This document shows positions 11,383 through 29,455 of a stretch of DNA of 64,000 bases, piece by piece (the first letter of the stretch is position 1; every line of letters starts with the position of its first letter). The notes under the pieces were generated by a model that saw nothing but the letters and a program-made list of their open reading frames with translations, searched no databases and had not been told where the DNA came from. Origin of the DNA: Lachnospiraceae bacterium (GTDB lineage Bacteria > Bacillota > Clostridia > Lachnospirales > Lachnospiraceae). The stretch lies in contig SVDH01000005.1 of assembly GCA_015057865.1 (NCBI GenBank), positions 29,950 through 93,949 on the forward strand. Reading direction: 5' to 3'. Both the position numbers and the translations under genes were made by a program.

Positions 11383-12765
11383 TTATTCCGCCTTTTTATT
11401 GCTTTTGATAAATCCAAACGCGAGAATGACACAGACGACGGCAAGGATCACCATGCCGACATAACTGTGGCGGACATTCGCGATGGTATAATTGGAATCC
11501 GTTACGCCGACTGACATCAGCGATACAAAGCCTGCTGCGCCAAGCGCTCCGCCGATCGTGCGCAGGCATGTCATCAATGCTGTGCCGTCGGTTTTTTCTA
11601 CGCCCTCAAGCTTTTCCATTCCGAAGGCCGCCAGATTCATCATGACAAAGGACATACCAAAGCCTAAGATGACGAGCGGAATGATCAGAATGTAGGAAGA
11701 CATATTCTCCTTTACAAAAAGTGTGCTGATCTCACTGATCAGAACAAGTGATGTTCCAAGCATCGCCAAGGGCTTCATGCCGATCCTGTCATACAGCTTT
11801 CCGGCAACAGGACTCATCAGACCCGTGATCAATGCGCATGGCGCGATGACGATACCAAATACCGTGGCGCTTTGTCCCTGCACGGTCTGGACCAGAATCG
11901 GGATGATCGTTGACATACCATTCATCAATGCATAAAAGATCATGCAGATGATGACTGCGACGGTAAAGTCTCTGGTCTTAAATACACGCAGATTCAGAAG
12001 CGGTGATTCGATGCGCATCTGACGAACCGAGAAGATGACCAGTGCGACCAGACCGATGACAAGCAGGAGTGCAACCTGAATGCTCATAAACGGATAGCTT
12101 CCCATATTGCCGGCCATAAGTACGATGCAGGTAAACCCGATCGCTGCAAGCACCATGGACAGCAGATCGAAAGAAGGCTTGGAATTCTCCAATACGTTTT
12201 TCATAAATTTTGCGCCGCAGATAAAATCCACCAGGCAGAACAGGAGGATGATCCAGAAGATCACACGCCATCCCCAATGGTCAATGATCACGCCGGCGAT
12301 CATTGGCGCTACAACAGGAGCAAATGTAACAGCCAGTCCGTAGACACCCATCGCAAAGCCGCGTTTGGCGGAAGGGATGATGATCAGGATTACCATCTGT
12401 GTCATGGATATGATGATGCCATAACCGACGCCCTGAATGATCCGCCCGAGCAGCATGATGGAAAAGGTCGGTGCCATGGCACAGAAGAGTATGCCGACTG
12501 TAAACAGTCCCATGCCGATAAAAAACAGGTTTTTCGTCGGGAACCGTTTGACGATAAATGCTGTAGCCAGAATCATGATCCCGCTGACCAGGGAATAGAT
12601 ACTGGTGACCATCTGCGCCTGACTTGCCGGAATACTGAAGTCAACCATGATGACCGGCAATGCGGTACTCATAACGGTTGATACAATGGAAGTGATGACT
12701 GATCCAAGGACCAGAACAAAGAAAATCCCTTTCCGGCTGATTTTAGAACTGTTGCTAGAACTCAT
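11383..12765 (-). CDS. MFS transporter, DHA2 (EmrB/QacA-like, ~14 TM) family
   Basis: Hydrophobic throughout with about 14 TM segments and the length typical of drug/H+ antiporters. Start placed at MSSSN (12765, SD-like GAAAGGG) rather than the ORF-track ATG at 12801, which has no SD. Confidence 0.85.
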   Translation of the reverse strand: MSSSNSSKISRKGIFFVLVLGSVITSIVSTVMSTALPVIMVDFSIPASQAQMVTSIYSLVSGIMILATAFIVKRFPTKNLFFIGMGLFTVGILFCAMAPTFSIMLLGRIIQGVGYGIIISMTQMVILIIIPSAKRGFAMGVYGLAVTFAPVVAPMIAGVIIDHWGWRVIFWIILLFCLVDFICGAKFMKNVLENSKPSFDLLSMVLAAIGFTCIVLMAGNMGSYPFMSIQVALLLVIGLVALVIFSVRQMRIESPLLNLRVFKTRDFTVAVIICMIFYALMNGMSTIIPILVQTVQGQSATVFGIVIAPCALITGLMSPVAGKLYDRIGMKPLAMLGTSLVLISEISTLFVKENMSSYILIIPLVILGFGMSFVMMNLAAFGMEKLEGVEKTDGTALMTCLRTIGGALGAAGFVSLMSVGVTDSNYTIANVRHSYVGMVILAVVCVILAFGFIKSNKKAE

Positions 12766-12840
12766 GGTGAAGACCCTTTCTGTTTGCGTTTTCAATTTCA
12801 TAAGATGATACCACTATTTTTTTTGTCTTGCAAATTCGTG

Positions 12841-12871
12841 TTTGTCGAATCTACAAACAAGAATTTATCAA
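12841..12871. repeat. 31-nt repeat, copy D (perfect reverse complement of 6285-6315)
   Basis: TTTGTCGAATCTACAAACAAGAATTTATCAA. Together with 12835-12840 it forms an 11-7-11 palindrome, TTCGTGTTTGT-CGAATCT-ACAAACAAGAA. It lies ~70 nt upstream of the MFS start. Confidence 0.9.
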
Positions 12872-12969
12872 TGGATAAGAACAGCATTTTGTGCTATTCT
12901 ATAATCAACAAATCAGCATAACAATGTAAAAAATGATACGGAAATACGTTTAGAGAGGAGATGTTTTTT

Positions 12970-13158
12970 ATGATCAGCAGAAGATTGATCCTGGCAGGCG
13001 CGGCGGCAGTCGTTGCGGCAGCACTTCCGGCAGCATTCTTTATCAGTGCGGTAGTGGAAGATGAGAAAAAAAGACGTGAAGGCGCAATGGAGCGCAAGGA
13101 AAAGATCCTGGAGGCAATGGCGAAAAATCGCGCAAAGGATGAGGAAGCAATGGGCTAA
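12970..13158 (+). CDS. small hypothetical membrane-anchored protein
   Basis: GAGGAG lies 9 nt before the ATG at 12970. MISRRLILAGAAAVVAAALPAAFFISAVV, then a Lys/Glu-rich tail. No recognisable family. Confidence 0.3.
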   Translation: MISRRLILAGAAAVVAAALPAAFFISAVVEDEKKRREGAMERKEKILEAMAKNRAKDEEAMG

Positions 13159-13202
13159 AGAGCGTAAGAGCCCTGTTTGTGTGGTTGGAATGGGCGGATC
13201 TG

Positions 13203-14450
13203 TTACCGGCTCAGATAATCCAGAATATAAAAAGATAACTCATATAGAAATAGAAGATGACTGTCTGTGGCAGAAATGTCAAGCAGCTCTTCTATTTTTT
13301 TGATGCGGTAAAAAAAGGTGCTCCTGTGGATGTGCAGCTTTGAGGCAGCGAGCGCCGCGTTTCGGTCACAGTCCAGATAGGTGCGTAGCGTCTGTATAAA
13401 ATCCGTACGGTATTCCCTGTCATGCTCGATCAACTGATAGATATGATGGTGAATGCCGATCTGCAGACCGGAATAGTCACAGTTCGAAAACAGGTAAGGC
13501 AATAATGCGTCGGTGCTGTGATAGAGCCGGATGGACGGATTGGAGGTATCACTCAACTCCAGTGTGCGCAGCGCCTGGTGATAATACGCGCTGATTTTAA
13601 TGATGTCCGCAAACGGCTGACTGATCCCGGCAATCATATCATTGCGGGTGCAGAATGTCTGGAGAGGATGCAGAAAAGCATCCGTGAGCAATACGGGATG
13701 TTCCTGATTGATCAACAGCAGGATGTGGTCCTTGTAAACAACAGCCATACTTTTTGGATAATGCTCTCTGAGTGTCATGACCTGACGTCTATGAAAAAGA
13801 TGATTATCAAGCGGCGTGGCAGATTCAAGCGCGATCACACAGTAATATCCTCCCGGCGTATGTCCGAGGATAGACAAACGCTCGGTGATTGTATCAGATT
13901 CTGTAAAACGGCCTTCAAAAAGGTCGATCAGAAAAGATTCGTAGGGCATACCCGTCCGGTTGTCCGGCAGCCCCCGGCGCTGCATCTCAAGCGCGCAGAC
14001 ATCAGAAAAAGCCGTGATCAGCTGCAATTGATCGTCGCTTAGCCGGATTTCCTTGGGCAGACATACGGCGACATACCCCATCGGAACCTGATGAATGCGG
14101 ATTGCGCAAAACGCCCAGGTCGTATCCGGGTGATCCTCAGGATTGACATGGAATGTCTGACGGTTCTCATAGATCTTTTCTTCGATCTGAAGGCGCCTCA
14201 GACTTTCGATTTCGCTGCTGTCTAAAAGAAGTCCTCCCGGCGTGCGCTGGATGCCGAAGGGAAACTGGTTCATCTGATCTGAGACGGCAATGATCTGGTA
14301 GCTGATGTCGCAGATGGATACCGGATAATGGATGTAATCTTCAAGCATCTGTGCCAGACGGGGCATTCCGCCATCTTCGGACAGGCTTTGATAGAGTGCA
14401 TTGATCTGTGTCAAAAGCATGATGTTTTCTGTGGTGATATCCTGTGCCAT
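13203..14450 (-). CDS. PucR/CdaR-family transcriptional regulator
   Basis: C-terminal PucR-type HTH (DRNAALAASKLHIHRSTFFYRIKKIEELL) and a long N-terminal sensor-like region. Divergent from the oxidoreductase genes. Confidence 0.8.
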   Translation of the reverse strand: MAQDITTENIMLLTQINALYQSLSEDGGMPRLAQMLEDYIHYPVSICDISYQIIAVSDQMNQFPFGIQRTPGGLLLDSSEIESLRRLQIEEKIYENRQTFHVNPEDHPDTTWAFCAIRIHQVPMGYVAVCLPKEIRLSDDQLQLITAFSDVCALEMQRRGLPDNRTGMPYESFLIDLFEGRFTESDTITERLSILGHTPGGYYCVIALESATPLDNHLFHRRQVMTLREHYPKSMAVVYKDHILLLINQEHPVLLTDAFLHPLQTFCTRNDMIAGISQPFADIIKISAYYHQALRTLELSDTSNPSIRLYHSTDALLPYLFSNCDYSGLQIGIHHHIYQLIEHDREYRTDFIQTLRTYLDCDRNAALAASKLHIHRSTFFYRIKKIEELLDISATDSHLLFLYELSFYILDYLSR

Positions 14451-14642
14451 AGTTTCGCTCTCCAGGTTATATAAAACTAATCAGACAAATGTTGAATGAT
14501 TGATAATGATATTTGCAATAAAATCCTACGAACGTTTGAGGATAAGATGAATAAAACATGATATACTGGGAATAAGGTATCATGATAACGGAAACTTTGT
14601 CAATCGATGAATGACAGGACAATTGTTCAAAAGGAGATGGAT

Positions 14643-16796
14643 ATGGCTATTATCACGATTGATGGTGTCCGGCTTACGGTGCCGGATGACCGGAATGTAC
14701 TGGAGAGTGCACTCCAGGCGGGAATCTACATCCCGCACCTTTGCTATCATCCGGACCTGCCGGAGAATGGCAGCTGCCGGATGTGTATCGTCGAAGTGGA
14801 CGGAGAGGAGCAGCCGGTTCCTTCCTGTACACTGAGACCAAAAGACGGTATGGTGATCCGTACCCGTTCGGAACGTGTCGACAAGCTCAGAGTTCTTGCG
14901 CTTGAGCTGCTTTTGGCAGCGCATCCTGAGGATTGCTCAACCTGTCCGAAGTATGGCAACTGTGAGCTTCAGACCCTGATGCAGTATGTCGGTGCCAATG
15001 CGTCCCGTATGCGTGTGCGTATCAAGGGCGCCAGAATGGAAGAAGGGAATCCGCTCCTGATCCATGATATGAACCGTTGCGTACTTTGCGGCAGATGCGT
15101 ACGTGCCTGCAAGAAGCTTCGTGGTGTCGGTGTGCTGGATTATACCAAACGTGAAGACCTTGAGACGTTTGTTGCGACAGTTCATGGAAAACTCCTGAAA
15201 GATGAGGACTGCCGGTTCTGCGGAGCGTGTGCGGAAGTCTGCCCGACAGGCTCGATCCGTGACAAGCTGCAGGCGGCTGAGACAGGAAAGACAAAAGAGG
15301 AACTTACGGTTCCGTGCCGTGCGGCATGCCCGGCGCATACCGATGTTCCGAGATATGTCCGTTTCGTAAAACAGGGTGATTATGATGCTGCGCTTGCGGT
15401 GATCCGCGAGAAAGCTCCGTTCCCGAAAGTCCTTGGCTATATCTGCAACCACGTCTGCGAGCTGGACTGCAAGCGCAGGGAAGTCAACGAAGCCATGTCG
15501 ATCCGCAACATCAAACGTTATGCGGCAGAACATGACACAGGGAAATACTGGAGAGGAAAAGGCAAGCAGCTTCCGGATACCGGAAAGAAGGTATGCGTTG
15601 TCGGCGGCGGACCGGCCGGCCTGACAGCAGCATATTATCTGCGGAAACAGGGTCATGATGTTACATTGAAAGAAGCGCTTCCGAAGTGCGGCGGTATGGC
15701 ACAGTACGGAATCCCGGCATACAGAATGCCGCGGAATATTGTGGATGAAGAGATCGCCATCATTGAGGAACAGGGCGTTAAGATCGAGACGAACTGCCGT
15801 GTAGAAAAGCCGGTAGATCTGTTGAAAGAATTTGACGCAGTGCTCTTAACGATCGGATCACATGAAGGTGTCCGTCTTCCGATGGAAGGCAGTGACCTGC
15901 CGGAGGTTCTTTTGAACATCGACTTCCTGCAGAACGCATCCATGGGAAAAGAAACCGGCATGGGCAAACGCGTCATCGTTCTTGGCGGCGGTAACGTTGC
16001 ATTTGACTGTGCGCGCAGTGCAAAACGTCTGGGCGCAGAAGAAATTCACCTTGCCTGCCTGGAAGCAAGAGATGTCATGACGGCAGACGATGAAGAGATC
16101 GAACAGGCACAGGAAGAAGGCATCTTCGTGCATCCGGCACAGACATTTGAACGCATTACCGGTACGGATCATGTAACCGGTGTTGATTTCATGAATGTAA
16201 AAGCATTCTACTTTGACGAAAACCGCCGTGCGGTGATCGAGAAGGAAGAAGGATCTGAGCATCATATCGAAGGTGACACCGTTATCTTCGCAACAGGACA
16301 GCGCCCGCAGGGCACCGTGGATATGGGCCTTGAACTCGGACGCGCAAACAGCATCGTGGTTAAAGAAGGATCGAATGCGGCTTCCGTAGATGGCATCTTT
16401 GCTGCAGGTGATGTGGTTTACGGAACAAAATCTGTGATCATGGCGATCGAGGCAGGCCGTGAGGCGGCACAGGAGATCGACCGTTACCTTGGCGGAGACG
16501 GAGACATTTCAGAAGTGCTCGCACCGGAGCAGGTGAAAGATCCGTGCATCGGCAAGGAAGAAGGCTTTGGCTACCTTGCGCGCAAGCAGCCTGAACTGAA
16601 GACGGCAGAAGAGAGAGAGGATAACTTCAATCAGTTTGACTTCGGAATCTGCGATGCGGACATCTGCGGTGAAGCAAGCAGGTGCCTGCAGTGTGACTTA
16701 AGACTTATGATCCATCCTCCGCGGCTGTGGAATGAATTTTCCAATACAGAAGCAGCTGAAGGAAATAAGGAAGAGGAGGTGACGGTCAATGCGTGA
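14643..16796 (+). CDS. Fe-S oxidoreductase subunit: NuoG/HydA-like N-terminus ([2Fe-2S] plus [4Fe-4S] clusters) fused to a GltD-like NAD(P)H/FAD module
   Basis: CYHPDLPENGSCRMCIVEV (2Fe-2S); HPEDCSTCPKYGNCELQ (His-ligated cluster); CVLCGRCVRAC and CRFCGACAEVCPTG (4Fe-4S); Rossmann motifs VCVVGGGPAGLTAAYYL and VIVLGGGNVAFDCA. AAGGAG lies 6 nt before the ATG at 14643. Confidence 0.8.
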   Translation: MAIITIDGVRLTVPDDRNVLESALQAGIYIPHLCYHPDLPENGSCRMCIVEVDGEEQPVPSCTLRPKDGMVIRTRSERVDKLRVLALELLLAAHPEDCSTCPKYGNCELQTLMQYVGANASRMRVRIKGARMEEGNPLLIHDMNRCVLCGRCVRACKKLRGVGVLDYTKREDLETFVATVHGKLLKDEDCRFCGACAEVCPTGSIRDKLQAAETGKTKEELTVPCRAACPAHTDVPRYVRFVKQGDYDAALAVIREKAPFPKVLGYICNHVCELDCKRREVNEAMSIRNIKRYAAEHDTGKYWRGKGKQLPDTGKKVCVVGGGPAGLTAAYYLRKQGHDVTLKEALPKCGGMAQYGIPAYRMPRNIVDEEIAIIEEQGVKIETNCRVEKPVDLLKEFDAVLLTIGSHEGVRLPMEGSDLPEVLLNIDFLQNASMGKETGMGKRVIVLGGGNVAFDCARSAKRLGAEEIHLACLEARDVMTADDEEIEQAQEEGIFVHPAQTFERITGTDHVTGVDFMNVKAFYFDENRRAVIEKEEGSEHHIEGDTVIFATGQRPQGTVDMGLELGRANSIVVKEGSNAASVDGIFAAGDVVYGTKSVIMAIEAGREAAQEIDRYLGGDGDISEVLAPEQVKDPCIGKEEGFGYLARKQPELKTAEEREDNFNQFDFGICDADICGEASRCLQCDLRLMIHPPRLWNEFSNTEAAEGNKEEEVTVNA

Positions 16797-19737
16797 ATAT
16801 AATGGTTATATCAAAGCAAAAGGCATCGGATCAGAAGATCTGATCACGATGATCAGAGAAACCGGTCTTCTCGAGTTTGGCATTGAAAAAGAGCCGGTTG
16901 CTGACAAGTGGGATCGTGTGATCGCAGAAAGAGATCAGCAGACCAATCCGATCCGTGTGGTTGCCGGACTGAATAACGCAGACAGAAACGGCGCGCTTCT
17001 GGCGCTGCTCAAAGAAGATGCAGAAAAAGTGCTTGACGGAATCTGCATTGCGGCACATGCGGTCAATGCCGATGAAAAATGGCTGTATCTGCCGGAAGGC
17101 TGTGAAGCACTTGGGGAAGAGATCTCCGACGCGGCAAAAGAATGCAGCGTAGAGATTCAGTATGGGATCATCAATCGCAGGGAGAGCAAGGGCGGTGCGT
17201 TCCATCACATTGAGACATTGCATGCGCTTTCTGAGATTCTGACAGGTTCCTATGAGCCGGGAACCTATGTGGCAGTCTGCCCGGTATCAAACGGCAAAGA
17301 GGCTGTGACAGGCGAGATCCGAAAAGTTTCGTTTGGAACAAAGGTTTCTGACATCCTGAAAGAATCGGGCATTTCAGAAGACATCCAGGCGATCGCGATC
17401 GGCACAAAACTGTTTGATGCATCTGGCGCAGAGATGGTCATCGAAAAAGAAACGCCGGTCGGAAACGGCGTTATTACCGTATATGACAATACCTGCTGTA
17501 TCGTGCATGAAGCAGAGAAGATCCTGTTAGAGGGCAGAAAGCAGAGCTGTGGCAAATGCACATTCTGCAGAGAAGGCCTGATCCAGCTGCATACGATGGT
17601 CAGAGAGATCACAGAAGGAAAAGGAAAGAAGGAATTCCTTCCGATGATCCAGGAGATCGGCGAGGCAATGGTGATTTCAACACCGTGTACGATGGGACAG
17701 ACCGGTTCGGATTTCGTTCTTGGCGCACTGGCTCAGTTTGCCGGTGAATTTGAAGAGCACATCCGCAAAAAATGTGCACATGATGTTTGCGAAGCGTTCC
17801 AGACGATTTACATCGATCCGAAGAAATGTACCGGATGCGGTCTGTGTATTGAAGCATGTCCGGTCAAAGACGCGATCACAGGGAAACCGGGTTATGTCCA
17901 TATGCTGGATGCATTTGCCGGCGTGAAAGCAGGTGAATGGATGGATGCATGTCCGGAAGGCGCGATCATCAAGACTTCAGGGCGTGTACCGAAGCTTCCG
18001 TCCAAGCTGACACGCGCGTCGGCAAAACCGGCACCGGGAAGCGCCGGAGAAGCGGCATTGCTGGCAGCCGGCGGAGCAGCTGCAGCAGACGGAAAGGGTG
18101 AAGCAAAGAAAGCTTCCAGACGGATTCGTCGTAGCAGTGCGGCACTGATGGCAGCAGCACAGAACAGTCAGGCGGCAGCTGAGGCAGGCGTATCATCCAT
18201 CAGCGGCAAAAAGAAAAAGGTTACCAAACCGAGAGTATTCAATAATACGGATCAATTACTTGGCGGAGGAAAGATTATGAAGAAAATGGAAGCAGATGTC
18301 ATCATCGCAGGCGGCGGCCCGGCAGGCCTTGCAGCTGCAGTAACAGCAGGTGAAAACAACCTGACCTCAATTATTTTTGAGAAGACCAACACCACCGGCG
18401 GTGCAGCAAATATGGGTATGGGACCGCTTGGAATCGATACCCATATCCAGAAAAAACTGTTCAATAATATCACGGTACAGGAAGCGCTGGATGAGCATAT
18501 GCGCTATACGCATTTCCAGGTAGATTCCGATCTGGTTCAGACCTACTTTAACAAGTCTGCTGATACCATTTCCTGGCTTGAGGACTATGGTGTAGAATTT
18601 GCCGGTGCATTCCGTTACTTCAAAGAGTCTGCGGCAACCTGGCATATCGTAAAACCGGAGAATGGTGTGATCGGCCCGCGTGCGGCAGGTCCGATGGCAC
18701 GTATCCTGGCAGAAAAGGCGCAGGAGATGGGAACGACCATCTGCCTGGAAACATCCATGAAGAGCCTGATCGTAGAAGACGGCCGTGTAGTCGGTATGAT
18801 CGCTGTTGACAAAGACGGCAATGAGATCGAAGCACGCGGTAAAGCAGTTGTGGTTGCAACCGGTGGATTCGGTAATAACGAAGAGATGCTGCGTGATGAA
18901 TTTGACCTGAATCTCTGGAAAGACTTCTGGCCGTTCCGTATCCCGGCACACCAGGGCGAAGGCCTGCAGGGTATGTGGGATGTCGGCGCAGAGCGTTATG
19001 GCGCGAACCTGGAGATCATCTACCAGCTGGCAGACAACATGAACTGGTTCCTGCTTGATGCAGTGCTTCGTCAGCCGAACCTGATGATCAATCAGCGCGG
19101 CGATCGCTTTATGAACGAGCAGTACATGGGCAATACGACCTATACCGGAAATGCGATCCGTCAGCAGCCGGGTAAATACGCATACTGCATCCTGGATGAC
19201 GCGATCATCAACTACTATAAGCAGAATGGACCGGATATCTTTGATATCGTGCATCCGGAAGAAGCATTCTTTGCGGTAGGACCGGAATTTGAGCGCGCCG
19301 TTGCAGAAGGATACGAAGGATACTTCGAAGCAGATACCATCGAAGAACTTGCAGAAAAGATCGGCATCGATGCTGATAAGCTGCAGGAGACCTTTGATGA
19401 ATACAATCAGATGTGCGAAGAAGGACGTGACGGCAAGTTCCACAAGAATCCTGATTTCCTGCACCCGATCTATGGTAAGGGCAAATACCGCTGCGGTAAG
19501 TTCTTCGTAGCGGCTTACGGCAGCATCGGCGGTGTCCGCATCAACAAGTACTGCGAAGTAATGGGCGGCGACCAGGAGCCGATCCCGGGTCTGTATGCAT
19601 GCGGTAATGATTCCAATATCATCTACGGCGACAGCTACAACTTCACCCTTTGCGGTAACTCCATGGGATTTGCAGTCAACTCCGGACGTATGGCAGGCGA
19701 AGCGATCGCAGAGTATATCGAGGATATGGGGCTGTAA
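16789..19737 (+). CDS. fusion protein: NuoF-like SLBB/[4Fe-4S] module, ferredoxin, Ala-rich linker, and FAD-dependent (fumarate-reductase/KstD-like) flavoprotein
   Basis: SCGKCTFCREG (NuoF-type cluster), CTGCGLCIEACP, a ~100-aa low-complexity linker, then DVIIAGGGPAGLAAA through GLYACGND (FAD_binding_2-like). The ATG overlaps the upstream stop (ATGCGTGA). Confidence 0.8.
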   Translation: MREYNGYIKAKGIGSEDLITMIRETGLLEFGIEKEPVADKWDRVIAERDQQTNPIRVVAGLNNADRNGALLALLKEDAEKVLDGICIAAHAVNADEKWLYLPEGCEALGEEISDAAKECSVEIQYGIINRRESKGGAFHHIETLHALSEILTGSYEPGTYVAVCPVSNGKEAVTGEIRKVSFGTKVSDILKESGISEDIQAIAIGTKLFDASGAEMVIEKETPVGNGVITVYDNTCCIVHEAEKILLEGRKQSCGKCTFCREGLIQLHTMVREITEGKGKKEFLPMIQEIGEAMVISTPCTMGQTGSDFVLGALAQFAGEFEEHIRKKCAHDVCEAFQTIYIDPKKCTGCGLCIEACPVKDAITGKPGYVHMLDAFAGVKAGEWMDACPEGAIIKTSGRVPKLPSKLTRASAKPAPGSAGEAALLAAGGAAAADGKGEAKKASRRIRRSSAALMAAAQNSQAAAEAGVSSISGKKKKVTKPRVFNNTDQLLGGGKIMKKMEADVIIAGGGPAGLAAAVTAGENNLTSIIFEKTNTTGGAANMGMGPLGIDTHIQKKLFNNITVQEALDEHMRYTHFQVDSDLVQTYFNKSADTISWLEDYGVEFAGAFRYFKESAATWHIVKPENGVIGPRAAGPMARILAEKAQEMGTTICLETSMKSLIVEDGRVVGMIAVDKDGNEIEARGKAVVVATGGFGNNEEMLRDEFDLNLWKDFWPFRIPAHQGEGLQGMWDVGAERYGANLEIIYQLADNMNWFLLDAVLRQPNLMINQRGDRFMNEQYMGNTTYTGNAIRQQPGKYAYCILDDAIINYYKQNGPDIFDIVHPEEAFFAVGPEFERAVAEGYEGYFEADTIEELAEKIGIDADKLQETFDEYNQMCEEGRDGKFHKNPDFLHPIYGKGKYRCGKFFVAAYGSIGGVRINKYCEVMGGDQEPIPGLYACGNDSNIIYGDSYNFTLCGNSMGFAVNSGRMAGEAIAEYIEDMGL

Positions 19738-19780: not shown

Positions 19781-19815
19781 AAAAGGAATCCGGCCGGTCT
19801 GGTCGGATTCCTTTT
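19781..19815. terminator. bidirectional terminator between the reductase gene and the ahcY operon
   Basis: AAAAGGAATCCGGCC-GGTCT-GGTCGGATTCCTTTT, with an A-run on one side and a T-run on the other. Confidence 0.65.
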
Positions 19816-27780: not shown

Positions 27781-28310
27781 TCATCCATAGAAGATTAAAA
27801 CAAGTTCCAAAAGGACGGTTCAGACGGTTTGCAGCATTGCTTGTTATCCTGAGCATGATGCTTTTTCTGCTCGTCGGATGTGGAAGCAAAAGTGAGCAGC
27901 CCGCGCCCCAGCAGACAGAGACTGTGACAGAAAGTGTGGCATCAGATCAGGAGACCGATGAGCATGTCTCTGCTCCGCAGATAGATGAGGATGGGAGTTA
28001 TACGTCTAAGGAAGATGTGGCATTGTATCTGCACACCTATGAAAAGCTGCCGTCTAATTTCATCACAAAAAAGGAAGCCAAAAGCCTTGGATGGGAAGGC
28101 GGTTCTCTGGAACCGTATGCGCCCGGAAAATGTATTGGCGGAGACCGGTTTGGGAACTACGAAGGACAGCTGCCCGACGGCTCTTACCATGAATGCGACA
28201 TCGGTACACTGGGAAAATCCAGCCGCGGGGCAAAACGCATCGTCTATTCCGATGATGGAAGGATCTATTACACAGATGATCATTATGAGACATTTGAACA
28301 GCTCTATTGA
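27777..28310 (+). CDS. secreted barnase-type ribonuclease (lipoprotein signal)
   Basis: The C-terminal 110 aa align by eye with barnase: VALYLHTYEKLPSNFITKKEAKSLGW...GKCIGGDRFGNYEGQLP...YHECDI...RIVYSDDGRIYYTDDHYETFEQ. N-terminal signal peptide with LLVGC lipobox. Confidence 0.85.
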   Translation: MIIHRRLKQVPKGRFRRFAALLVILSMMLFLLVGCGSKSEQPAPQQTETVTESVASDQETDEHVSAPQIDEDGSYTSKEDVALYLHTYEKLPSNFITKKEAKSLGWEGGSLEPYAPGKCIGGDRFGNYEGQLPDGSYHECDIGTLGKSSRGAKRIVYSDDGRIYYTDDHYETFEQLY

Positions 28311-28339
28311 ATGTTGAAACACCAAATACGGTAGGAAGA

Positions 28340-29455
28340 ATGATAGAATACAGAATCGATCTAAAAGGAATCCAGAGCAGAGAGGCGCTGCATGATCTGT
28401 TGGAGCAGGTGCTTCCGCTGCCGGACTATTACGGGCGAAATCTTGACGCACTCTATGATGTGCTGACTGACTGGAGTGGGAAAACCGGGATTTTGCTTTG
28501 TGGTGTACGCGCCGCAATGGAAAACGAAGGAATGGAAAAGATTATCCGGGGGCTGGTGTCCGTTTTTATGGATGCAGCCAAAGAGAATCCGGGTTTTTCT
28601 GTTACAATAGAGGATGAGCATACAGACAAAGAGGAGGGACTTATGGAGAACAAGACAGATTACATTGCAAGTGCAGGACAGACGTATATTCCGTTTCAGA
28701 AGAATATCTATACCGATCTGATGCCGTTTGATCCGCCGGCAAAGCCGGATCCGCTGCTGCCACCGCTTGAGCTGACGGACGAAGCGATCGCAAAAGGATA
28801 TGTGCTGCCGTCACAAAAGCAGCATTTCCTTCCGGGCGTGACATCAGAGATGATGGACTGGTTCTGGGCAAATATGGAGAAGGGATACTATCTTTGGGCA
28901 CCGGGTTCTCACAAGCGTTTTAACTGGGTGAAATCTCCGGTAGAATACGGCATGGAGGATTCCATTCATATGATCGCAGAAACGACAGCCAAAGGGCTGC
29001 CGGTATTCGGAGGAGAGGGCGTTCAGATCCATCGCCTGCATCTGGATGAGTTTTATCCCTGTAAAACAGCATTAAAGCATGTTATTTGCGAGGGCGTTTT
29101 TAATGACGCCGGCGAATTTGTCGATTCCACGATCCATGAGTGGGAAGATGTGCCGGGCGGTCTGGTTCATATCACGGCAACGGTTTCGAATACAAAAGCT
29201 TCGATGCCGCCGGGATTTGTACTGAAGATGATCCAGGAAGATCCGAATGTGAAGATCGTTCCGAACTGGGCGACCGACCATGAAGACTATGAGGCAAGTC
29301 AGTGGCCGATCTTCCTGCCGAAGTTATATGAGCTTTGGAAAAACCATCCGGATCCGGCACAGAATGTACAGTGTAATCTGGAGGTTGCATTGGGCGAAGA
29401 TGGGAAGTATCATTATATAGCAGAAAACGGACCGGTTCAGATACCGGAAGCGTAG
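28340..29455 (+). CDS. barstar (RNase inhibitor) fused in frame to a ~270-aa PhlG/phloretin-hydrolase-like domain
   Basis: N-terminus MIEYRIDLKGIQSREALHDLLEQVLPLPDYYGRNLDALYDVLTDW is barstar-like. No stop occurs before an internal SD+ATG (AAGAGGAGGGACTT-ATG at 28643). The C-terminal part has YYLWAPGSHKRFNW and HEDYE (H-x3-E). I recall this as DAPG/phloretin hydrolase-like, from memory only. Confidence 0.7.
   Translation: MIEYRIDLKGIQSREALHDLLEQVLPLPDYYGRNLDALYDVLTDWSGKTGILLCGVRAAMENEGMEKIIRGLVSVFMDAAKENPGFSVTIEDEHTDKEEGLMENKTDYIASAGQTYIPFQKNIYTDLMPFDPPAKPDPLLPPLELTDEAIAKGYVLPSQKQHFLPGVTSEMMDWFWANMEKGYYLWAPGSHKRFNWVKSPVEYGMEDSIHMIAETTAKGLPVFGGEGVQIHRLHLDEFYPCKTALKHVICEGVFNDAGEFVDSTIHEWEDVPGGLVHITATVSNTKASMPPGFVLKMIQEDPNVKIVPNWATDHEDYEASQWPIFLPKLYELWKNHPDPAQNVQCNLEVALGEDGKYHYIAENGPVQIPEA

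Follow-up and report, generated by a model that had tools for sequence, protein, structure and literature searches.

A PucR-flanked two-subunit flavoprotein of a Lachnospiraceae bacterium as a putative ene-reductase with an iron–sulfur electron-input module

The stretch of DNA analyzed here, referred to as the window, comprises 64,000 nucleotides of contig SVDH01000005.1 of a Lachnospiraceae bacterium, and all coordinates are positions in this window. It contains the gene of a PucR-family regulator that is divergent from two translationally coupled genes, A and B, which encode the subunits of a modular flavoprotein. We interpret this system as a putative reductase of carbon–carbon double bonds. 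The corresponding features are:

13203-14450, minus strand: PucR/CdaR-family regulator gene, 415 amino acids (HTH_30 and GGDEF_2 in Pfam)
14451-14642, no strand: divergent intergenic region presumed to bear promoter and operator, with AAGGAG 6 nucleotides before ATG 14643
14643-15302, plus strand: subunit A, NuoG/HydA-N-terminal-like Fe-S domain (Pfam Fer2_4, NADH-G_4Fe-4S_3, Fer4_Nqo3)
15303-16796, plus strand: subunit A, module like GltD, NfnB and dihydropyrimidine dehydrogenase (DPD), then a C-terminal Cys cluster (Pfam Fer4_20, Pyr_redox_2)
16789-17433, plus strand: subunit B residues 1-215, vestigial NuoF FMN/NADH-binding and SLBB region that has lost its cofactor site (fold, profile alignment)
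17434-17988, plus strand: subunit B residues 216-400, N3-type [4Fe-4S] domain and ferredoxin-like domain (NADH_4Fe-4S, ligands)
17989-18270, plus strand: subunit B residues 401-494, linker (composition, poor conservation in the alignment)
18271-19737, plus strand: subunit B residues 495-982, catalytic FAD_binding_2 domain of the VprA-like 'GGAANMGMGPLG' clade (Pfam, NCBIfam, AF2)
19781-19815, plus strand: hairpin terminator ending the A-B operon, shared with the convergent ahcY gene (stem and T-rich tail)

In the table of open reading frames gene A is listed at 14607-16796 and gene B at 16789-19737 (982 amino acids), both on the plus strand. The start of A is ATG 14643, which has the Shine-Dalgarno sequence given above and corresponds to the MAVITIDG with which more than 50 homologs begin, and no Shine-Dalgarno site was found for ATG 14607. 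Because of this start A comprises 717 amino acids. Gene B begins within A at a start/stop overlap (ATGCGTGA, 16789-16796) and has GAGGAGG as its Shine-Dalgarno sequence upstream. This bears out the divergent, translationally coupled arrangement that an earlier note had described from the letters and open reading frames of this DNA. The terminator consists of a 16-pair stem (7 GC) followed by the T-rich tail. Between 14430 and 14660 no inverted repeat of at least 10 nucleotides was found, and a promoter scan of the intergenic region gave no sigma-70 match above the shuffled background. The regulator possesses a C-terminal HTH_30 domain (E=1.3e-17, 63.8 bits) and a GGDEF_2-like middle domain (E=2.2e-12, 47.7 bits), both above the cut-offs, and thereby shows the domain structure of the PucR/CdaR family. 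In the Pfam check of domain boundaries all domains named in the earlier note were recovered, and the motifs it quoted (LLEFGIEKEP, SCGKCTFCREG, DVIIAGGGPAGLAAA and GLYACGND) were all located.

Subunit A consists of NuoG/HydA-type clusters followed by a GltD-like NAD(P)H-flavin module, as had been proposed, and this is supported by Pfam, by the cluster ligands and by matches in the PDB. Its N-terminal 220 residues provide ligands for a [2Fe-2S] cluster and for three [4Fe-4S] clusters, one of them His-ligated; these 15 Cys and one His are invariant in 26 homologs, and this part matches the N-terminal domains of HydA, NuoG and HoxU (PDB, NCBIfam). The second part contains Fer4_20 with two [4Fe-4S] clusters (E=1.8e-15) and Pyr_redox_2 (E=2.4e-33), together with both Rossmann motifs of the GltD/NfnB/DPD-type NAD(P)H-FAD Fe-S module, namely GGGPAG of the FAD site and GGGNVA of the NAD(P)H site (within residues 329-342 and 456-469 of P0002). 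Residues 236-697 match the Bfu-type transhydrogenase NfnA 9bov_A (E=3.4e-126), 9n5u_A and StnC 8oh5_C, and further PDB matches of the GltD-like module are 5jca_L, 4ylf_B and 6s6s_G. For none of the named NCBIfam models does the score of this module reach the equivalog cut-off.

Residues 1-215 of subunit B have no Pfam match, and neither Complex1_51K nor SLBB was found anywhere in B. Their affiliation comes from the fold. An AF2 model of residues 1-425 (pLDDT 91.4) was matched by Foldseek to the entire chains of HydB 7q4w_B and NfnB 9bp5_B (TMq 0.72-0.73 over about 470 columns, E down to 1e-25), and hhalign of B against the 628-residue HydB of the same genome gave a probability of 99.95%. In this profile alignment the FMN loop GRGGAGFP of HydB faces EFGIEKEP in B (part of LLEFGIEKEP, residues 27-36) and the GAGA..CGEETAL segment is deleted, and in the corresponding part of a 25-protein family alignment N63 and D65 are the sole invariant residues. 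According to the model, residues 1-425 are a true NuoF/HydB fold with an FMN/NADH site that is lost throughout the family. The degenerate loop pointed out in the earlier note is hence real and a trait of all 25 relatives. Of the NuoF-like SLBB domain with the SCGKCTFCREG cluster (residues 253-263) the fold and the cluster motif stand, while residues 1-215 are not recognized by Pfam.

The following part of B has kept its cluster ligands. Pfam detects NADH_4Fe-4S at 250-324 (E=2.5e-18) and Fer4 at 340-359, and the N3/B1 cluster domain and ferredoxin that end HydB, NfnB and StnB are matched by residues 215-397. The N3-type ligands C254, C257, C260 and C300 are invariant in the family alignment; the same holds for H324, C329 and C334, which are common to HydB and may form a zinc hinge as in that protein. 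In the ferredoxin one full ligand set (C347, C350, C353, C388) is present, and where a second cluster would have its three Cys this lineage carries G378, A381 and W384. This means that the predicted ferredoxin domain exists but can ligate one [4Fe-4S] cluster only. The second-cluster Cys are kept in 55 of 59 relatives, and most relatives carry two CxxCxxCxxxC motifs. A different replacement is seen in 18 of these 59 relatives (B or Bn proteins from L003-L086), where Asp, Ser, Asn or Glu takes the place of the second Cys in the first ferredoxin motif, which suggests a non-Cys-ligated or a [3Fe-4S] cluster. In the window's lineage the first motif is intact and the other cluster is lost.

The flexible linker, described before as Ala-rich and about 100 residues long, measures 94 residues (401-494), of which 23 are Ala, and abounds in Lys, Gly and Ser as well. 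At this linker B is split into two genes, designated Bn and Bc, in 24 loci, and MKKMEADV, the start motif of the separate flavoprotein gene in split relatives, corresponds to residues 497-504 of B. A paralogous locus of the same genome, on contig C30, uses a Bn of 230 residues without NuoF remnant (mini-Bn). It is evident from the window copy that none of three traits is obligatory in evolution, namely the NuoF remnant, the second ferredoxin cluster and the fusion.

The C-terminal part of B is a complete FAD_binding_2 domain (residues 503-958, E=1.2e-49 in Pfam) with DVIIAGGGPAGLAAA within residues 497-517 and GLYACGND at 934-941. Pfam together with the fold matches confirms the make-up of subunit B, in which a catalytic flavoprotein of this type follows the NuoF remnant and the ferredoxin. 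The closest characterized family is vinylphenol reductase VprA (NCBIfam NF053717), whose model is matched over its full length with 303.4 bits. Since the equivalog cut-off is 600 bits, the domain lies outside VprA proper; genuine VprA from Secundilactobacillus collinoides reaches 664.9 bits and is 29.9% identical to the FAD domain of B. An AF2 model of residues 495-982 (pLDDT 87.2) has the two-domain FAD_binding_2 fold with the capping domain of the Fcc3/UrdA type. Its structural neighbors are UrdA 6t86 (Z 36.5, root-mean-square deviation 3.7 Å over 443 residues), KstD (Z 33.3) and Fcc3 (Z 33.1).

The active-site residues of flavocytochrome c3 (Fcc3) were mapped by HMMER alignments to 1d4d and 1qjd-type chains. 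The residues for substrate binding and catalysis in fumarate and urocanate reductases (H365, R402, H504 and R545 in Fcc3) are all replaced: H504 corresponds to Y910, R545 to T953, R402 to the region N782-T784 and H365 approximately to Y745, where H365 and R381 may each be misplaced by about one residue. The FAD domain of B is therefore not of the fumarate or urocanate type that the earlier note had considered, although it is complete and, as proposed there, catalytic. The 3-ketosteroid dehydrogenases (KstD), whose catalytic constellation is Tyr/Tyr/Tyr-Gly, match the domain in fold, and at the position of Fcc3 H504 the domain has a Tyr (Y910). In KstD a catalytic Tyr probably lies at about this position.

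Full-length fused homologs (about 905-980 residues) are common both in metagenomes and among Lachnospiraceae, Oscillospiraceae, Clostridium and Erysipelotrichaceae, and carry generic names only, such as “fumarate reductase” and “glutamate synthase small subunit”. A scan of species-representative genomes gave at least 566 loci, and the A-B family occurs in about 1-2% of the sampled Clostridia. For clustering, the best 80 of the at least 566 loci were combined with 6 fetched earlier and with the window, which makes 87 loci. Among these a gene resembling flavone reductase (FLR-like) is present in 28, one resembling phloretin hydrolase (Phy-like) in 18, a DUF1097 gene in 16 and an adjoining divergent PucR gene in 25. 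The main clade (41 rows) has FAD domains 64-69% identical to that of the window and typically shows the operon FLR-like / A / B / DUF1097 / DAPG_hydrolase (Phy-like), whose FLR-like protein matches the flavone reductase structure 7d38 from end to end (E=5.6e-25). The window's own clade (22 rows, SH-aLRT 97) has PucR / A / Bn / Bc as conserved unit, so that the modular two-subunit reductase divergent from a PucR regulator, as the earlier note saw it, is more than a local arrangement. Its sister clade, from Lactobacillales and streptococci, combines FMN_bind with FAD_binding_2. When the clade of the window is compared with the FLR/Phy clade, the alignment contains no position at which their conservation differs, and the reaction type is therefore probably common to both.

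Two other gene contexts extend this picture. In a clade with FAD domains about 44% identical to that of the window (39-41% over full length) the A-B genes are directly followed by genes for C-glycoside deglycosidases, i.e. a CGDB subunit and a xylose-isomerase-like TIM-barrel subunit (L064, L068, L070, L078, L085), and these neighbors link the module to the breakdown of flavonoid C-glycosides. In nine operons (L015, L031, L034, L045, L052, L055, L073, L079, L084) the Phy-like gene is replaced by thiolase-like, DUF35/zf-ChsH2, ACP, phosphotransacylase (PTA) and acetate/butyrate-kinase (AckA)-like genes, and this set could represent a thiolytic, ATP-yielding alternative to hydrolytic cleavage of dihydrochalcones. 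Closer to the window, the locus occurs in 4 of 5 other genomes of the genus, and 13 further genera of the family gave no match. Within the genus B is fused (982 residues) in four genomes and split in one complete genome (G001:C1:1523410-1528391, i.e. L109:9410-14391). In this split form Bc is 86% and Bn 54% identical to the window's counterparts, which means that the fusion, or a replacement of Bn, is recent.

The genome itself (2.16 Mb) contains the second locus already mentioned (L101:7780-18341 on C30). Its gene order differs from that of the window and is PucR | FLR-like (318 residues) / Bc with FAD_binding_2 (497 residues) / A-like (703 residues) / mini-Bn, corresponding to the C-terminal part of NuoF / MFS / a protein of 448 residues without assignment / DAPG_hydrolase. 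Its Bc is 41% identical to the counterpart in the window, and the locus directly adjoins a HydABC-type hydrogenase cluster. Five full-length DAPG_hydrolase genes of the phloretin-hydrolase family are present (contigs C13, C17, C30, C1 and C41; L094-L098), and the one on C1 adjoins a further, distant FAD_binding_2 paralog. Any DAPG_hydrolase gene was detected in 6 of 301 genomes of the class sample, this genome included, and in none of 14 control genomes. From its gene content the organism looks like a polyphenol specialist. The genome-wide search for PF18089 gave no match on the window's contig. Window positions 28307-29455, once considered as PhlG-like, match only Barstar in Pfam at E<=1e-4 and were not used as context. 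In the class sample the clade and PF18089 have 5 and 6 positives with an overlap of 2 (this genome included), which is too few to carry weight.

Taking domains, ligands and gene contexts together, we suggest with moderate confidence that A and B together make up a two-subunit ene-reductase of the cytoplasm which depends on NAD(P)H, is induced via PucR, works as a linear electron wire and acts on a plant phenolic. NAD(P)H would reduce the FAD of the GltD-like module of A. From there single electrons would pass over the two Fer4_20 [4Fe-4S] clusters to the NuoG/HydA-like clusters of the same subunit and on to the N3-type [4Fe-4S] cluster of B, whose NuoF remnant would serve as a scaffold that binds neither FMN nor NADH. 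The single ferredoxin cluster of B would then re-reduce the tethered VprA-like FAD, which in turn would deliver a hydride to a conjugated C=C bond. In this way the cell could use the phenolic as electron sink and/or detoxify it, and the PucR regulator would mediate induction of A-B. The most likely overall design is hence a linear one (flavin, Fe-S wire, flavin), comparable to that of dihydropyrimidine dehydrogenase or glutamate synthase. The redox potentials of ene and enoate couples are about 0 mV and that of NAD(P)H about -320 mV, and the reductive direction is therefore favored. The substrate is probably of the chalcone/flavanone, hydroxycinnamate, vinylphenol or stilbene type, in which the C=C bond is in conjugation with a hydroxyphenyl ring and/or a carbonyl group, because VprA is the closest family, the carboxylate ligands are absent and the relatives as well as the paralog stand in flavonoid contexts.

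Several points weigh against this interpretation, in which the sequence of electron carriers, the reaction direction, the choice of nucleotide and the type of substrate are inferred. The order of the wire is taken from the homology to HydABC and NfnABC, and the donor may be NADH or NADPH. Loss of a ferredoxin cluster in this lineage could alter or shorten the path. No FLR, Phy, decarboxylase or glycosidase gene adjoins the window copy or most of its clade; the co-location of FLR, reductase and Phy known from flavonoid operons is seen in the FLR/Phy clade and in the C30 paralog, and the assignment to polyphenols is therefore borrowed from these. In the class sample 3 of the 5 genomes with the clade (this genome being one of the 5) lack a Phy-like gene. 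Finally, the sole neighboring transporter is, judged by its family, of the efflux type and not an obvious importer. A complex prediction (A 13-232, B 215-425 and B 495-982) gave a score of 0.01 and was used neither for nor against the wire.

Other explanations have to be compared with the phenolic-reducing wire. The earlier note had called the enzyme possibly bifurcating, which would mean that oxidation of NAD(P)H is coupled to reduction of both the ene substrate and ferredoxin, or that ferredoxin and NAD(P)H together reduce the substrate. This would suit the origin of the modules, which derive from Bfu-type enzymes (matches to NfnABC, StnABC and HydABC), and the GltD-like module is homologous to NfnB/NfnL, where the bifurcating FAD resides (5jca/4ylf); moreover, the roughly 300 mV that separate NAD(P)H from the ene would otherwise go unused (cf. 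Bcd-Etf and caffeyl-CoA reductase), and there are more clusters than a simple wire needs. Subunit B also has the B1 cluster and the C-terminal ferredoxin, and subunit A the NuoG/HydA-like domain, that belong to a Bfu enzyme. The bifurcation site of this family, however, is composed of FMN, cluster B1 and the NuoE-type cluster C1 (PMC11829005). None of the 25 aligned relatives has an intact FMN pocket, so that a BfuB with an FMN and NAD(H) site beside B1 is missing, and no gene for a NuoE-like BfuC with the C1 [2Fe-2S] cluster is found in the operon, its flanks or related loci, the sole 2Fe-2S_thioredx gene belonging to the separate HydABC cluster on C30. With both FMN and the C subunit missing, bifurcation of the Bfu type is excluded. 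Furthermore this lineage lost one of the two ferredoxin-domain clusters, the paralog manages with its mini-Bn, and there is no sign of a second branch out of the GltD FAD, all of which makes a bifurcating or confurcating reductase in general distinctly improbable. In a special form of this idea the GltD-like FAD of A would itself be a bifurcating flavin of the NfnSL type, sending the high-potential electron along the wire to the VprA-like FAD and the phenolic C=C bond and the low-potential one to ferredoxin. We regard this as a long shot, but if true it would be a new class of bifurcating enzymes, built on a Bfu scaffold stripped of its original FMN bifurcation site, by which gut Clostridia conserve energy from the reduction of plant phenolics.

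Alternatively, the same wire might feed a reductase for something other than a phenolic, for instance acrylate, itaconate, an enone such as a 3-ketosteroid, or a nitrogen heterocycle to which PucR responds. PucR regulators are classically linked to purine and nitrogen catabolism, polyphenol genes are absent beside this copy and its clade, the fold is equally close to UrdA and KstD, and Y910 replaces Fcc3 H504, at about which position KstD probably has a catalytic Tyr. We nevertheless consider this unlikely, since the His and Arg that bind the carboxylates of fumarate and urocanate are absent, VprA is the closest characterized family, the FAD domain has no residues that set it apart from its close relatives in FLR/Phy operons, and PucR genes flank flavonoid-type operons too (L003, L004, L005, L010 and the C30 locus). 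Purines, urocanate and steroids, suggested previously as inducers to screen, are likewise not favored by the gene context of the relatives, whose FLR-like and Phy-like genes point to plant polyphenols. It could also be imagined that the window copy is a decaying or non-catalytic paralog whose function has passed to the more complete-looking, FLR- and Phy-linked C30 locus, as the loss of the second ferredoxin cluster's three Cys is confined to this lineage. Against this, the ratio of nonsynonymous to synonymous substitutions (dN/dS), with the 95%-identical ortholog L001 as reference, is 0.013 for the FAD domain, 0.055 for the N3 and ferredoxin part, 0.106 for the linker and 0.12 for the NuoF remnant (0.047 for the regulator), i.e. 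all parts are under strong purifying selection. The reading frames are intact in the genus carriers, complete in G003 and G004 and cut by contig ends in G005. Metagenomes of animal guts and faeces contain DNA of the locus, and a faecal metatranscriptome contains contigs 100% identical to A and B and none over the PucR gene; their support is weak, as DNA carry-over is possible and neither strand, level nor a single A-B transcript can be read from contigs. Decay is thus highly improbable, and the A-B system is by all signs of its sequence functional.

Beyond a gap of 400 bp (12802-13202) on the low-coordinate side of the regulator lies a further feature:

11383-12801, minus strand: DHA2/EmrB-type MFS efflux transporter, oriented like the regulator (Pfam MFS_1, TIGR00711)

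It scores 280.5 bits with TIGR00711 (efflux_EmrB, cut-off 230.2) and adjoins the PucR gene in the closest relatives L001 and G004 and in no other member of the clade. Its membership in the system is uncertain, and an efflux transporter fits detoxification or export as well as coincidence.

Several known systems resemble parts of A and B. VprA from Lactiplantibacillus plantarum resembles the B domain in being an FAD_binding_2 protein without fumarate-type carboxylate ligands and with GGxRxx after the Tyr/Gly segment, and it reduces C=C bonds conjugated to a hydroxyphenyl ring. It is a stand-alone protein of about 480 residues, whereas the B domain is tethered to the NuoF remnant and ferredoxin and is predicted to be fed by subunit A. 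With the Bfu enzymes NfnABC, StnABC and HydABC (9bov/9bp5, 9n5u, 8oh5, 8a6t, 7q4w) the system has in common the GltD-like part (matches to NfnA and StnC with E=1e-102 to 1e-126) and, in B 1-425, the HydB/NfnB fold, the N3/B1 cluster, the hinge His and Cys and the C-terminal ferredoxin. It differs in lacking the FMN/NADH site, the NuoE-like C subunit and hence the FMN-B1-C1 flavobicluster, in the loss of one ferredoxin cluster, in the attached FAD_binding_2 domain and, compared with NfnA and StnC, in a permuted order of A with the NuoG-like before the GltD-like domain. Such enzymes are not mentioned in the 2022 survey of the Bfu family. Dihydropyrimidine dehydrogenase and GltBD likewise combine a GltD-homologous NAD(P)H-FAD input, [4Fe-4S] clusters and a second flavin, which reduces a C=C bond (DPD) or an imine; here, in contrast, the acceptor is an FAD_binding_2 domain instead of a TIM-barrel FMN protein, and additional NuoG- and NuoF-derived cluster domains lie between.

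The FAD_binding_2 reductases Fcc3, UrdA and ARD/Crd (with FMN_bind) and TfrAB, TcuAB and FrdAB (with Fe-S partners) share the fold of the B domain and demonstrate that the input modules are interchangeable; in the Lactobacillales sister clade FMN_bind stands in place of the Fe-S wire. Unlike in these reductases the residues H365, R402, H504 and R545 of Fcc3 are replaced in B, and an input of NuoG-like, GltD-like and NuoF-remnant parts is not among the described types. In flavonoid degradation, known for FLR, Fcr and Phy of Flavonifractor plautii, Eubacterium ramulus and Clostridium butyricum, the A-B genes of the relatives sit between FLR-like and Phy-like genes. In C. butyricum this middle position is occupied by Fcr (PMC11868195), which suggests that A-B of the relatives may perform the same step, from chalcone or flavanone to dihydrochalcone. 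Fcr is an OYE-type Fe-S flavoenzyme or enoate reductase and not homologous to A-B, and the window copy has neither an FLR nor a Phy neighbor. That A-B might stand in for a missing Fcr in this genome was considered and dropped, since five OYE-type (Oxidored_FMN) genes are present. FLR was assayed only with added NADH:FMN reductase, and A-B might be a candidate for its physiological supply of electrons. Literature searches revealed no characterized ortholog and no published description of the A-B architecture; the Weissella FarAB system was judged unrelated.

A-B is a new electron-input module on a VprA-like, putative ene-reductase, which probably acts on a plant phenolic and probably does not bifurcate electrons. 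Gut Clostridia saturate C=C bonds of dietary flavonoids, chalcones, hydroxycinnamates and vinylphenols, and the resulting dihydrochalcones, phenylpropionates and ethylphenols reach the host. For many of these species we know of no enzyme to which the reaction has been ascribed. If the family indeed comprises Fe-S-wired VprA-like ene-reductases, the labels “fumarate reductase” and “glutamate synthase small subunit” in the databases could be corrected, and the flavonoid operons would contain a candidate for a non-homologous replacement of Fcr that may also supply electrons to FLR. A bifurcating Bfu scaffold would then have been deprived of the site of bifurcation and turned to simple electron transfer. 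The window copy means that this module also exists as a stand-alone unit of regulator and reductase.

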